64,000 nucleotides of DNA from a virus (IMGVR_UViG_3300037722_000699:3713-67712), one strand, 5' to 3'. Positions 34,207 through 40,364 are shown, counted from the first letter of the stretch. The notes: a model not told the origin generated them from the letters alone. Translations and numbers: made by a program.

Positions 34207-34308
34207 ACACTTTCACTCGGCCGCAACCGCGGTCTGTTCGTTTGGCGATGTTATACTTGACGTACCCACCTGAAGGCCCTATATTAGAGGGAACAAGGAG
34301 ATAGGGTC

Positions 34309-35235
34309 ATGTCGGTTCTCAACGCCCCCCACTTTCATAACGAAGAGGCCGCTTACAAGTTTGTCGAGGCGCGGATTTGGCCCAACGGCCGGATTTGCCC
34401 TCATTGCGGCACCATAGACCATAGCGGCAAGCTGCAGGGCAAGAGCACCCGCATAGGCGTCTACAAGTGCTACGACTGCCGCAAGCCCTTCACCGTCAAG
34501 ATCGGAACCGTCTTCGAGGCCAGCCATATCAGGCTGCATATCTGGCTGCAGGCGATTTTCCTGCTGTGCTCGTCGAAGAAGGGCATCAGCTCTAACCAGC
34601 TTCACCGTACCTTGGGCGTCACTCTGAAAACCGCTTGGTTCATGTCGCATCGTATTCGTGAGGCCATGCGCTCGGGTGATCTGTCGCCGTTCGGCGGCAA
34701 CGGCGGCGCGGTCGAAGTTGATGAAACTTTCATCGGCCGTAAGAAGGGCGTGCCTGTTCGCCATGGCTACGAGCACAAGAACAAGGTGCTGTCCCTGGTG
34801 GATCGCGAGTCCGGTCGGGCGCGGTCCATGGTGGTCGATGACCTTAAGACCAGCACTGTCGCTCCGATCGTTCGCGAGAACGTCGCTAAGGAAGCGCGCT
34901 TGATGACCGATGAAGCCCGCCACTATGTCAAGGTCGGGCGCGAGTTTGCGGACCATCAGCGGGTCTATCACAGCGCTGGCGAGTACGGGCGCGGCGAAGC
35001 CCATACCAATACCATCGAAGGCTATTTCAGCATCTTCAAGCGCGGCATGAAGGGCGTCTACCAGCATTGCAGTGAACATCACCTTCATCGCTACCTTGCA
35101 GAGTTCGATTTCCGCTATAGTGAGCGGATCGCGCTTGGCATCGATGACCAGATGCGCGCCGAAAAGGCGTTACGGGGCATCGTCGGCAAGCGGTTGACTT
35201 ATCGAACGACTGATAGCGCCGAAGCCCAAACCTGA
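34309..35235 (+). CDS. tnp: IS1595-family DDE transposase
   Basis: Zn ribbon CPHCG...CYDC, HTH GISSNQLHRTLGVT, and catalytic-type motifs VEVDETF, LMTDEA and TNTIEG. Confidence 0.95.
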   Translation: MSVLNAPHFHNEEAAYKFVEARIWPNGRICPHCGTIDHSGKLQGKSTRIGVYKCYDCRKPFTVKIGTVFEASHIRLHIWLQAIFLLCSSKKGISSNQLHRTLGVTLKTAWFMSHRIREAMRSGDLSPFGGNGGAVEVDETFIGRKKGVPVRHGYEHKNKVLSLVDRESGRARSMVVDDLKTSTVAPIVRENVAKEARLMTDEARHYVKVGREFADHQRVYHSAGEYGRGEAHTNTIEGYFSIFKRGMKGVYQHCSEHHLHRYLAEFDFRYSERIALGIDDQMRAEKALRGIVGKRLTYRTTDSAEAQT

Positions 35236-35316
35236 AACCTGGGCCGAATTTTGCCGGCGGTGGAGCGCGATCCTCCGCCGCTAATCTATTTCTATGTTTT
35301 TCAGTGCGTGGCCGCC

Positions 35317-35550
35317 CTATTCAGCAGCCACAAGCTTAGCGATTCGCTCCGCCGCAGAGGCAGACCAAAACTTGGCCAGCACTTCTATCGGTTTCTGGGG
35401 GTCGTCTTGACTCGCCAAAAAGAGGTAATATCCGATACCATCGACATCGAGGCCCGCGTCACGAGCGCGCTTCGCTTCTCTATTGGTGATGCCCCCGACG
35501 CATAGCACCGCAGAATTTGTAAGAGAGATCGCGCCGACTAACTCGTCCAT
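35317..35550 (-). CDS. IS passenger hypothetical protein
   Basis: 77 aa with GAGG SD, divergent from the next gene. Confidence 0.55.
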   Translation of the reverse strand: MDELVGAISLTNSAVLCVGGITNREAKRARDAGLDVDGIGYYLFLASQDDPQKPIEVLAKFWSASAAERIAKLVAAE

Positions 35551-37626: not shown

Positions 37627-39213
37627 CTAGACCCGAATCGAATTACAGTAGAAGTGGGACATTTGTAAATTAGCCATGTCCCCAGTGCCGCCCTCACGCC
37701 GGGGAATTTTGTGATCAATGCTTATCGAGTTCGCATGCAGTGCTCCGCCACAAATCGCGCACTTGGACGCGCTAGCAATGGCGTCTCTGAAGAACACCGC
37801 CGATTTCGTGCTGGCGCTTGCACGTCCCGATGCACCTTTTTGCAGTCCAGCCCGCGGCGAGGGCACTTTGGCCGCAGCCAAATGCCCGAATAGAGGATCA
37901 CCATATAAGCCGCTCAGTATCCTATCTGCGTCTTTCCCCTCTTTAAGATTCTCAAAGACTCTTAAGTAAAGGTCTCGTACTCTATTTAGGCTACGGGCCC
38001 CGCTACCGAGCCGCGAGATCGTTAAACTTACGAAAACTCTGTTAGACAGTATAAAATCCTCAAACCGAGCCCTTACCTTTGTAAATTCAGCCAAAAGGCC
38101 TTTTGTTTCCAGGTGGCCAACAAACTCAATGGCCGCAAGGAATGCGTTGGGCTGAAAATTTCCGGCTTGCCCGTAGAAGTATATGGCGGGGTGAAGTCCA
38201 AGCGATTTAGGCCTTGTGCCCGTTAGCATGTCCAGGGCGGATTTCACCTCTTTCAAGAACTTGACGGTTTGCGCTCCGTCCTCATCTGGCGGCAGCGTCA
38301 CTCCGAGCTTTTTGCTCGCCATCTTCTCCGGCAGCGGGAGCCCATTCACCAAGTTCACTAAGTCAAAAACGAACGGCAGCGTGTTATAGCCGCGGCCTGC
38401 AACGGGAATATCCAAAGATTTGACCGGGCCCTCGGCAAGTGGCGGCCGATAAAGCGCATCGAATAACTCTTTGCCAAACTCCACTATCTGTTCGCGGGTC
38501 TGTTCGGGGAAATCCTTCCAGTACACATAGCCGCTGCCCCCTCGCGCAATGCATCGGGCGGCTATCGCATTGGCTGCTCGTCGGGAGTGCAGGATTCGCC
38601 TTTCGGTCGGATCGATAGGTTGAGCTGCTTGATTGATCTTGAAGAAAGAGGCTTCTGCGGCCGATGAATCGGTTGCGGTGACCCACTGCACGACAATCGA
38701 ATTGGCAGCGAGACCGGCCACCTTTTGTCTCATTTCAGCAGTGATATTGTCCCTGTTGTTGCTAGCGGCCTGCAGCTCGGCATAAGAGCCCACGGTCTTC
38801 TTGATTAGCGATCTGGTCTTGTCGGCAATTTTCTTTTGTTCCTCCGATATTCTCCCACCGAAGAAATTGAGTGAAGCCCTGTCATCTCCATAGTCATTCT
38901 TCACCCAGGCAATCAATGCGCTTAGCCTATGGGCGCCATCGATTACGAAAATCTCACTCCCTCTCTGCCAGAGAATAACAGCCGGAATGAGATCGCCGCT
39001 GATGAACGCCTTGACTAGATCAGCTACTTTTTCGGGGCTCCAATAGGTGGTTTCTCGCTGAAAATCTGGCTTCCTAAGGGAGTTCGAAAAAAATCCGGAA
39101 TCAAGATCAGCAATAGCTATAGTGCTCCGGGGGTTGCCACCAGACGACGCCGCCTCTAACTCGAAATCATCCCGCGGCACCAAGGCATCCAAGTTGACAG
39201 CATTTGTGGCCAT
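37627..39213 (-). CDS. DUF262 (GmrS/ParB-like) + HNH nuclease, GmrSD-like
   Basis: PDFQRETTYW and VIDGAHRL (DUF262 motifs); C-terminal CAICG...IDHKIPRREGG...NLQMSHFYCN HNH. Confidence 0.85.
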   Translation of the reverse strand: MATNAVNLDALVPRDDFELEAASSGGNPRSTIAIADLDSGFFSNSLRKPDFQRETTYWSPEKVADLVKAFISGDLIPAVILWQRGSEIFVIDGAHRLSALIAWVKNDYGDDRASLNFFGGRISEEQKKIADKTRSLIKKTVGSYAELQAASNNRDNITAEMRQKVAGLAANSIVVQWVTATDSSAAEASFFKINQAAQPIDPTERRILHSRRAANAIAARCIARGGSGYVYWKDFPEQTREQIVEFGKELFDALYRPPLAEGPVKSLDIPVAGRGYNTLPFVFDLVNLVNGLPLPEKMASKKLGVTLPPDEDGAQTVKFLKEVKSALDMLTGTRPKSLGLHPAIYFYGQAGNFQPNAFLAAIEFVGHLETKGLLAEFTKVRARFEDFILSNRVFVSLTISRLGSGARSLNRVRDLYLRVFENLKEGKDADRILSGLYGDPLFGHLAAAKVPSPRAGLQKGASGRASASTKSAVFFRDAIASASKCAICGGALHANSISIDHKIPRREGGTGDMANLQMSHFYCNSIRV

Positions 39214-39251
39214 TTTTTTCTCGCCGCAAAATCGATAGTTGAGCGAGCATA

Positions 39252-40364
39252 TCATAGCTCACTCTCGCTGCCTTGGGTACGGGAAGTATAATATCGCCGT
39301 TCGTTTCCATAGGTCAGCGGCACCCCATGCCACGCTGCCCAGACATCATGCAGCAGGGCCTTGACCATGGCCCGGCGGGCGCCCTTGTCCGCCCAAGCGT
39401 TTGAGCCGGTCTTTTCGAGCCGCGACCGCTCCAGTTCTCCACGCTCCCCGGCCAGGACGCGAGCGACCCGGCGCATCTTGGCCTGGGCATAGACATCTCC
39501 GTAGGGGCCGATCGCATGCGCGGGTATGACGGTAACAGCGGGGTCAACTACCACATGGCTTCCAACTTCATCGCGGCTCCCGCTGCCGCCGTCATACGTG
39601 ATGGACTTCTCGCCGCGCCACTGCGCACGGAACAGCGGATCAGCGATAATGCCCATGACACGGCCCCGGCTGTTCCGGGGGATCTTGCGGCCAGTCTTCT
39701 TCTCGCCGGTCGGGTAGCATTCGTCGGGGCAGAGGCCGAGGCGCTTGTAGAGCGCCCGGCGGCCAGAACCGCGACGGCCATGAAGGCGCGCATACTCGCG
39801 GTTGTAGCTCCCGATATCGCCAGCCTCGCCGATCAGCACGGCCAGCCCCCAGGCCGAGAAGCCCTTGACGTGGCCTATGACAGCCCAGGCCGGCAGAGAC
39901 TCCGCCAGCTTCTCGGCTTCCTTGCGGTTGGCCGCGTCACGTTTGTTCATTGCGTCGTAGGCCGGCTTCACGTCCAGGACAAATCCAGCGATTTGCGCCG
40001 CCAAGGCCGCATCAGCTTCGGCAATCTCCTTGCCGTCCAGCAGCGCCATCACGACGTTGCGCGCCCGGTCGGCTTCCTTCTTGCGCGCCTTGGCGTCCAG
40101 GTCCGGCTGCCATGCAGTCAGGTGCGTTCTGGCGAAGGCCACCAGCCCGTGCACGATCTTGATGCGCGTCTGTTCGGCCGCCTTGGACAGGCGGACATGC
40201 AACTTGATGCGGTCAATGGTGCCGGGGTCAAAAACCGCTTGGCTTTCATCTTCTGCTTGGCTCCCGGCACCATCGCTCGCAGCCGGAGAAGCGGGGTCAG
40301 AAGTGAAGCGGCGCCCATCGCAGTGGCGGCTCCCGCTCTCCGGCATTCCGTTGTCACTTCGCAT
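39252..40364 (-). CDS. tasA: Nop-domain (IS110-related) protein, TasA-like, no nuclease domain evident
   Basis: Coiled coil followed by LAESLPAW...VKGFSAWGLAVLIGEAGDIGSY...LYKRLGL (Nop/Transposase_20-like). GGAGGT SD before ATG 40364. Guide units lie within and beside it. Last 15 aa are encoded by the IS end. Confidence 0.8.
   Translation of the reverse strand: MRSDNGMPESGSRHCDGRRFTSDPASPAASDGAGSQAEDESQAVFDPGTIDRIKLHVRLSKAAEQTRIKIVHGLVAFARTHLTAWQPDLDAKARKKEADRARNVVMALLDGKEIAEADAALAAQIAGFVLDVKPAYDAMNKRDAANRKEAEKLAESLPAWAVIGHVKGFSAWGLAVLIGEAGDIGSYNREYARLHGRRGSGRRALYKRLGLCPDECYPTGEKKTGRKIPRNSRGRVMGIIADPLFRAQWRGEKSITYDGGSGSRDEVGSHVVVDPAVTVIPAHAIGPYGDVYAQAKMRRVARVLAGERGELERSRLEKTGSNAWADKGARRAMVKALLHDVWAAWHGVPLTYGNERRYYTSRTQGSESEL
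39524..39597 (-). ncRNA. TIGR-like unit embedded in the tas CDS
   Basis: gtatgacggcggcagcggg AG CCG cgatgaagt TGGAAGCCA tgtggtagt TGAC cccgctgttaccgtcatac. Confidence 0.8.
40216..40344 (-). ncRNA. Two TIGR-like units embedded in the 5' end of the tas CDS
   Basis: 40282-40344 (CCG ccactgcga TGGGCGCCG cttcacttc TGACC) and 40216-40273 (CCA agcagaaga TGAAAGCCA agcggtttt TGACC), each closed by a stem of 11-13 bp. Confidence 0.85.

Follow-up and report, generated by a model that had tools for sequence, protein, structure and literature searches.

Transporter insertion sequences (ISs) of the IS1595 family were described by Siguier, Gagnevin and Chandler (2009, as cited in PMC3129680). Stem-loop TIGR-TasA systems are represented by PlTasA (PMC12045711; 10.64898/2026.08.11.744272) and by BlTasA and MbTasA (10.64898/2026.09.09.750476), and their guide RNAs, the stem-loop tigRNAs, consist of a palindromic stem of variable sequence that encloses two 8–12 nt spacers with box C/D motifs on their flanks (PMC12045711; 10.64898/2026.09.09.750476). 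Both kinds of element meet in the stretch of viral DNA analysed here, a window of 64,000 nt that corresponds to positions 3713–67712 of the 67,792 bp IMG/VR virus record IMGVR_UViG_3300037722_000699. Very probably, a new IS1595-family transporter IS with passenger genes transposed into a temperate-type phage and hit a nuclease-less tasA gene. The element now lies between the gene and three of its guide units.

The IS1595-family element and its insertion site

The element spans nt 34244–39298 (5,055 bp) and was delimited by its terminal inverted repeats (TIRs), by a drop in GC content (62–65% in the phage flanks versus 48–56% in the IS interior and cargo), and by homology to sequences in two proteobacterial metagenome-assembled genomes, GCA_009377445.1 (L026) and GCA_022572745.1 (L035). 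The left TIR (IRL, 34244–34268, plus strand) is found again at L026:7934, and the right TIR (IRR, 39274–39298, minus strand) at L035:6916 and L025:4170; the pair are 25 nt long and complementary at 22 of 25 positions (88%). Both are directly abutted by identical 8 bp direct repeats, GTTCGTTT, which can be read at 34236–34243 on the left and 39299–39306 on the right. Target duplications of 8 bp are typical of the IS1595 family in ISfinder. Just inside IRL, on the plus strand, is a full-length IS1595-family transposase gene (34309–35235; 308 aa), with a promoter-like site ahead of it within the left end of the IS (34257–34285, plus strand). The protein matches Pfam DDE_Tnp_IS1595 (PF12762, E = 5e-35) and, at its N-terminus, Zn_ribbon_IS1595 (PF12760, E = 2e-11), as well as NCBIfam transpos_IS1595 (NF033547), where its score of 202 bits exceeds the cutoff of 75 and its match covers positions 1–215 of the 215-position profile. 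To find TIRs, a perfect 8 bp repeat and an intact transposase of the IS1595 type together goes far beyond what chance would produce, and the perfect duplication and intact transposase suggest that the insertion is recent. The element is present as a single copy in the whole 67.8 kb record.

Nucleotide homology to L026 begins at base 1 of IRL, and homology to L035 begins at base 1 of IRR, where it continues in the order TIR, DUF262-HNH gene (77% aa identity), small open reading frame (ORF) and IS1595 transposase. The TIR of this IS also bounds related copies in L025, L026 and L035. Sequence comparison thus confirmed both ends of the element independently of the TIRs. The 15 nt flanking the IS copy of L026 (L026:7919–7933 and 10274–10288) are inverted, not direct, repeats, and the contig ends there; these flanks are probably a fold-back assembly artefact, so that no target duplication can be taken from this copy. 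The closest transposases, which come from alphaproteobacterial metagenome-assembled genomes and from metagenomes, are 81–85% identical in aa sequence, and because nothing in the protein collection exceeds 85% identity the element represents a new IS. An alphaproteobacterial host is its most likely source. The plasmid database gave a single match, to 344 nt of the transposase, and exact-protein look-ups for the transposase and for the phage gene orf68 returned nothing beyond their own record.

The target of the IS is codon 356 of a tasA-type gene that in its present form encodes 370 aa (39252–40364, minus strand), seven codons ahead of the original stop, and transposition would have duplicated GTTCGTTT within this codon. 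The present Tas protein ends ...TYGNERRYYTSRTQGSESEL*, where the 15 C-terminal residues (RRYYTSRTQGSESEL) and the stop are encoded by the right end of the IS. The orphaned original 3′ end of the gene, i.e., what remains of the Q codon, followed by TAVAAE and the TGA at 34215–34213, is retained on the far side of the element (34213–34235, minus strand). Deleting 34244–39306, which removes the IS and one copy of the duplication, gives a protein ending ...TYGNEQTAVAAE* and brings the first guide stem to 2–4 nt past the TGA. The insertion swapped the last seven residues of TasA for 15 from the right end of the IS and increased the distance between tas and three canonical, non-coding units downstream of it from about 3 nt to 5.06 kb, while units embedded in coding sequence were not moved. 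These results uphold an earlier note on this DNA, which had read an IS1595 transposon with passengers seven codons before the tas stop (borne out by the TIRs, the 8 bp duplication and the transposase), with a present C-terminus translated from the right TIR (as found in the ORF). Its proposal that excision restores the tail with the TGA at 34215–34213 was reproduced to the base, and the split it described between tas and a three-unit 3′ array that once began a few nt past the stop agrees with both the reconstruction and the mapped units.

The earlier note had also expected IS-free relatives to show an end of this kind adjacent to an array. Fifty Tas homologues were found, and the layout of the reconstructed site, where the tail ...TYGNEQTAVAAE* is followed by three units at +15, +86 and +157, has counterparts among them. 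In L007 (protein P0005, 50% aa identity), tas ends ...LDYATAVDEAA* and is followed by three unit cores at +15, +79 and +138 after the stop; in L008 and L009 (P0003) the tail is ...MYAKTE*, with two units at +7 and +69; and in L014 it is ...DRPSAT*, with one unit at about +13. Other Tas relatives end ...YATAVPEAA*, ...YATRLDEAA* or ...YAAAPDKAA*, and P0029 and others end ...YATAVDEAA*. The reconstructed ...QTAVAAE* resembles the ...YATAVDEAA* of P0005, P0029 and others. The expectation was therefore borne out at the level of the family, by units 7–15 nt past the stop in L007, L008/L009 and L014 and by similar tails in several relatives, but not by a near-identical sibling or by reads across the empty site, which are taken up below.

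The TasA protein and its guide units

The assignment of the interrupted gene draws on its ORF, an NCBIfam match, an AlphaFold2 model and a Foldseek search. Residues 286–345 match positions 151–214 of the 215-position NCBIfam profile TIGR_Tas_endo (NF052498, E = 6e-9), and no Pfam domain was found at E ≤ 0.01. The AlphaFold2 model, built with 29 family members, has a predicted local distance difference test (pLDDT) score of 83, with a disordered N-terminal stretch of 47 residues and no additional folded domain. When compared with the PDB by Foldseek, ranks 1–11 were all TasH or TasR (probability 1.0, template modelling (TM) score by target about 0.6, E about 4e-3), followed by IS621 recombinase and Nop5. 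By its predicted fold, a coiled-coil joined to a Nop-type RNA-binding fold, the gene product is a Tas protein, and as it is without a nuclease domain it is of the TasA type and not TasH or TasR.

In Tas proteins the RNA-binding part is the C-terminal domain, and nuclease domains, where present, are N-terminal. The conserved landmarks of the window protein all precede the insertion junction at residues 355/356: the last confident helix spans residues 323–345, the profile match ends at 345, and the motif WHGxPLxY ends at about residue 351. Among 28 relatives, the tails that follow WHGxPLxY vary from 1 to about 70 residues and show no conservation. Because the tail in which the insertion fell is not conserved and follows the RNA-binding C-terminal domain, TasA probably keeps its fold and RNA binding, and the exchange of seven residues for 15 is probably tolerated. 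The view of the earlier note that the protein is probably still functional gains indirect support from the position of the junction past the last motif, the end of the profile match and the last helix. An argument for C-terminal tolerance from the nuclease fusions of TasR and TasH was considered and dropped; their nucleases are N-terminal in the published account, so that domain fusions give no precedent for it.

Eight guide units were recovered in the window, all on the tas strand and of one common design. Each has a variable 6–14 bp stem, the box G(T/A/C)GCC, 10 variable nt, an 8 nt loop, a further 10 variable nt, the box TGACC and the closing stem. The loop ends in GCC (ACC in one unit), and the cores have invariant G.GCC ... 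GCC ... TGACC positions at a 10+8+10 spacing. The three displaced units, each about 62 nt long, are located on the minus strand at 34149–34210 (unit 1), 34078–34139 (unit 2) and 34007–34068 (unit 3); unit 1, for example, is composed of a 12 bp stem, GTGCC, a 10 nt spacer A, an 8 nt loop, a 10 nt spacer B, TGACC and the returning stem. Stems are longest in these three, which also carry the canonical GTGCC box and are the sole units outside coding sequence. The five units that are still joined to tas lie within 39530–40822 (minus strand), inside tas and the partner gene that precedes it, with cores at 40810–40773, 40741–40704, 40332–40295, 40263–40226 and 39579–39542.

Covariation of the stems was assessed in an alignment of 25 units, drawn from the window and from four loci related to it. 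Stem positions were paired in 80% of cells, compared with 46% in shuffles, and all 12 of the 12 pairs showed double-sided changes. The covariation score of 0.83 (0.20 in shuffles) was not reached by any of 500 shuffles, and no slide of the alignment came close. The predicted architecture of the units is that of the published stem-loop tigRNA. A search of Rfam gave two matches, both at chance level. When the eight guides were compared to the 67.8 kb genome, with either order of the two spacers, gaps of 0–2 nt and up to four mismatches allowed, nothing exceeded the level of shuffled spacers, and as no guide matches its own phage genome better than shuffles do, the targets of the guides lie elsewhere.

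Passenger genes and phage setting

The largest passenger gene (37627–39213, minus strand) encodes a protein of 528 aa, counted from the likely start at M15, with an N-terminal DUF262 (GmrSD_N) domain (Pfam, E = 3e-12) and a full-length match to phrog_29172 (E = 3e-117). Its closest homologue (77% aa identity), in L035, has an IS1595 transposase gene and a copy of the same TIR as neighbours. At its C-terminus the protein has an HNH domain (PF01844) instead of DUF1524 (GmrSD_C), and a designation as a GmrSD-type type IV restriction enzyme was rejected for this reason; from its domain content the predicted product is best called a DUF262-HNH protein. The longest ORF would start at an ATG overlapping the new tas TGA (ATGA), and this start was also rejected, given that M15 is the start both in the homologue of L035 and in the gene as called by Logan. 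The insertion placed this gene downstream of tas on the same strand, and its start at 39213 is 38 nt past the new tas stop. A weak, hybrid promoter-like site (9/12) straddles the junction at 39288–39317 (minus strand), with a −35 that belongs to tas and a −10 that belongs to IRR, and is directed into the DUF262-HNH gene; its TATTAT hexamer is kept in the L035 repeat.

The next passenger gene (36677–37522, minus strand) specifies a protein of 281 aa that matches phrog_5990 (E = 1e-22) and is without a Pfam family. Its structure in the Atlas matches, with a TM score of 0.82, a cluster whose members bear PF00227 (Proteasome) in 75% of cases, which serves only as a lead towards a proteasome-like (Ntn-hydrolase) fold. 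On the plus strand, a gene of 232 aa (35579–36277) had no match in Pfam, PHROG, PADLOC or NCBIfam and only unnamed clusters in the Atlas. A minus-strand ORF of 77 aa (35317–35550) was predicted as a gene in the Logan assembly and has a promoter-like site ahead of it (35613–35586), the best minus-strand site of this kind within the IS. Finally, a small plus-strand ORF of 54 aa (36327–36491) is conserved beside the transposase in L025, L026 and L035, as seen by tblastx, blastn and translations. Its relatives at L025:3250–3408 and L026:9241–9400 are 52–54 aa long and K/E-rich, with a conserved core KRFIEKARE..FERAFKK, and an ORF of this type accompanies the transposase in every related element examined. 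It may encode an IS accessory or regulatory protein.

The related elements are smaller. That of L035 is about 3.4 kb and has no passengers other than the DUF262-HNH gene and the small ORF (L035:6916–9059 compared), and those of L025 and L026 are about 2 kb. Compared with L035, the IS of the window has two extra segments, one with the 281 aa gene, which is missing from L035, and one with the 232 aa and 77 aa genes. This difference suggests that the window copy gained, or L035 lost, the extra genes, and would point to cargo accretion within a transporter IS.

Upstream of tas, on the same strand, are a partner gene (40354–41055) and a gene for an RfaH/NusG-like antiterminator (41062–41577; Pfam NusG, phrog_6386, and NCBIfam RfaH at E = 2e-21, which is below cutoff). 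Read along the minus strand, the order is RfaH-like gene, partner, tas, IS right end, DUF262-HNH gene and 281 aa gene, then the small ORF and 232 aa gene (both antisense), the 77 aa ORF, the antisense transposase, the IS left end and the three displaced units. Beyond the units are orf68, orf74, further small genes, the large terminase (30352–28694) and the portal (26997–24649). A related phage, IMGVR_UViG_3300048611_000188 (L032), shares the terminase (78% identity), the RfaH-like gene (73%), orf68 (85%) and orf74 (88%). Its slot between the RfaH-like gene and orf68, held in the window by the partner, tasA and the array, is filled by a different cassette. This cassette (L032:1986–4901) carries PNKP (HAD phosphatase plus kinase), a T4 Rnl1-type RNA ligase and an HNH endonuclease, and resembles an RNA-repair cassette. 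Because L032 holds different genes there, the slot behind the RfaH-like gene is a variable accessory region or hot spot, and the IS is a second layer of cargo within it. Upstream of orf68, a block of some 50 nt (33810–33860, minus strand) is nearly identical at about 4920–4970 of L032, despite the different upstream cargo, and may be a regulatory element of the shared phage backbone.

A second assembly covers part of the locus. Logan contig L010 (run SRR12682375) is 100% identical to window positions 35043–41291 and includes the junction of tas with the right end of the IS. The Logan assembly breaks at 35043, within the transposase gene, and the next Logan contig, identified by an exact-protein look-up of orf74, ends at 33556, short of the left junction. 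The same run contains a second Tas gene, 62% identical, on a 1.4 kb contig (L006; Logan SRR12682375_2115687). At least two related TasA phages therefore share the sample, a possible cause of the contig breaks near the locus.

Fate of the displaced guides and comparison with known systems

The consensus scan found no outward promoter at the left end of the IS, and without a convincing promoter of their own the displaced guides would depend on minus-strand read-through of the element. A transcript crossing the IS would be sense through the two large cargo genes and then antisense through the 232 aa and transposase genes, a read-through distance of 5 kb that includes 2.4 kb with little translation. 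The search for intrinsic terminators in the IS turned up none that is convincing: counts were at shuffle level and the convergent region (36260–36700) gave a fold z of 0. Sites resembling the ops element of RfaH occurred at chance level, and none stands out. RfaH-type factors suppress Rho-dependent polarity. On balance, expression that is reduced but still present, through read-through possibly aided by the RfaH-like protein, is slightly favoured for the displaced guides; silence is a less likely but serious possibility, and transcription from a promoter internal to the IS, e.g., that at 35613–35586 (minus strand), is improbable.

Silence would follow from strong polarity, whereby transcription of the tas operon stops in the IS, either by the action of Rho on untranslated RNA or by collision at convergent genes. 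The genes at 35579–36277 and 34309–35235 (both plus strand) do oppose the incoming transcript, and the missing outward promoter at the left end is also in keeping with this outcome. It has a real chance of being correct, although it falls short of even, as an RfaH-like antiterminator is encoded just upstream and the IS offers no convincing intrinsic terminator. TasA would then be left with its intragenic guides only and, if the late genes need the same transcript, the phage would be crippled, a consequence held with the same reserve. The terminase and portal genes do lie downstream on the same strand, but they may have signals of their own: a promoter-like site (33983–33955, minus strand) lies between the array and the next genes, and because this site and the block conserved in L032 (about 33860–33810) precede them, the late genes need not depend on transcription across the IS.

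A further reading makes the locus a natural split-array allele, in which an IS carrying defence genes fused the DUF262-HNH gene to the tas operon and functionally removed three canonical guides. This is rather unlikely; if true, comparison with an IS-free sibling would reveal what the three guides regulate, and IS-borne defence cargo would be seen to spread through phage genomes via accessory hot spots. Unlikelier still is an adaptive gain, whereby the IS delivered a DUF262-HNH cassette that the tas operon would now express and that would serve in superinfection exclusion. The cargo nuclease does sit on the tas strand, 38 nt past the new stop, its full-length PHROG match means that relatives of it occur in phages, and accessory content varies in the slot flanked by the RfaH-like gene and orf68 (PNKP, RNA ligase and HNH in L032). 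The insertion, however, is present in one record only, an event so recent (perfect duplication, intact transposase) does not require selection, and PADLOC recognised no system in the cargo cassette above noise. That a host copy of the IS was collapsed into the contig of an uninterrupted phage during assembly is very improbable: the left junction lacks an independent assembly, with Logan contigs stopping at 35043 and 33556, but a perfect 8 bp duplication of phage sequence at the exact IS ends is the signature of transposition and not of mis-joining, the tas frame breaks off at the duplication itself, and the contig of a second assembler has the identical right junction.

Some observations do weigh against transposition of the IS into tasA and separation of the gene from its guides as set out above. 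The Tas profile score is 36 bits, under the curated cutoff of 100, and the left IS junction is present in the IMG assembly only. Four relatives (L012, L013, L016 and L002) have no unit right after the tas stop, and from the loci compared a 3′ guide block is common in the family, not universal. An IS-free sibling was sought in IMG/VR with the 27-mer of the empty-site junction and with Tas peptide patterns, and none was found. The Tas family profile returned only relatives of at most 60% identity from IMG/VR, GTDB genomes and JGI metagenomes. Neither the exact core of guide 2, nor the degenerate, back-translated reconstructed tail, nor megablast against INPHARED phages yielded an IS-free sibling, and reads that span the empty site were likewise not found. 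With no near-identical sibling, the pre-insertion state rests on the duplication and on relatives of about 45–50% identity. As promoter and terminator consensus scans were at chance level, the likelihoods given for guide expression are a matter of judgement and not of measurement.

IS insertions into prophage accessory regions are commonplace, and this one is biologically unremarkable and of some use as a naturally occurring allele. Should TasA turn out to be active, the insertion would mark the C-terminal tail of tasA as a tolerated break point. The locus also provides a natural test of whether stem-loop guides must adjoin tas, or share its transcript, to be made. The question of adjacency was raised by a 2026 preprint in which flanking sequence sharpens tigRNA processing. 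For the IS itself, a lineage of IS1595 elements with a DUF262-HNH gene, gaining cargo, is caught moving into a phage, one route by which defence genes can enter viral genomes.

Like the IS1595 transporter ISs, the element has a zinc-ribbon DDE transposase, short imperfect TIRs, an 8 bp duplication and, between the TIRs, passengers unrelated to transposition; unlike its nearest IS1595 relatives it has a larger cargo set and resides in a phage genome. The locus that it entered is like the stem-loop TIGR-TasA systems in its nuclease-less Nop fold and in its tandem units, which have two spacers of about 10 nt and box C/D-like motifs and are located downstream of, and inside, tas. It differs from them in that a mobile element splits the array from tas and in its weak similarity to the curated Tas profile (36 bits). 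No published case of a TIGR-Tas locus split by an IS came up, although no literature search was aimed at one. IS insertions that interrupt CRISPR-cas loci uncouple the effector from its guides or inactivate part of the system. Unlike CRISPR-cas loci hit in this way, the tas ORF of the window survives with an exchanged tail, and its guides are intact but displaced.

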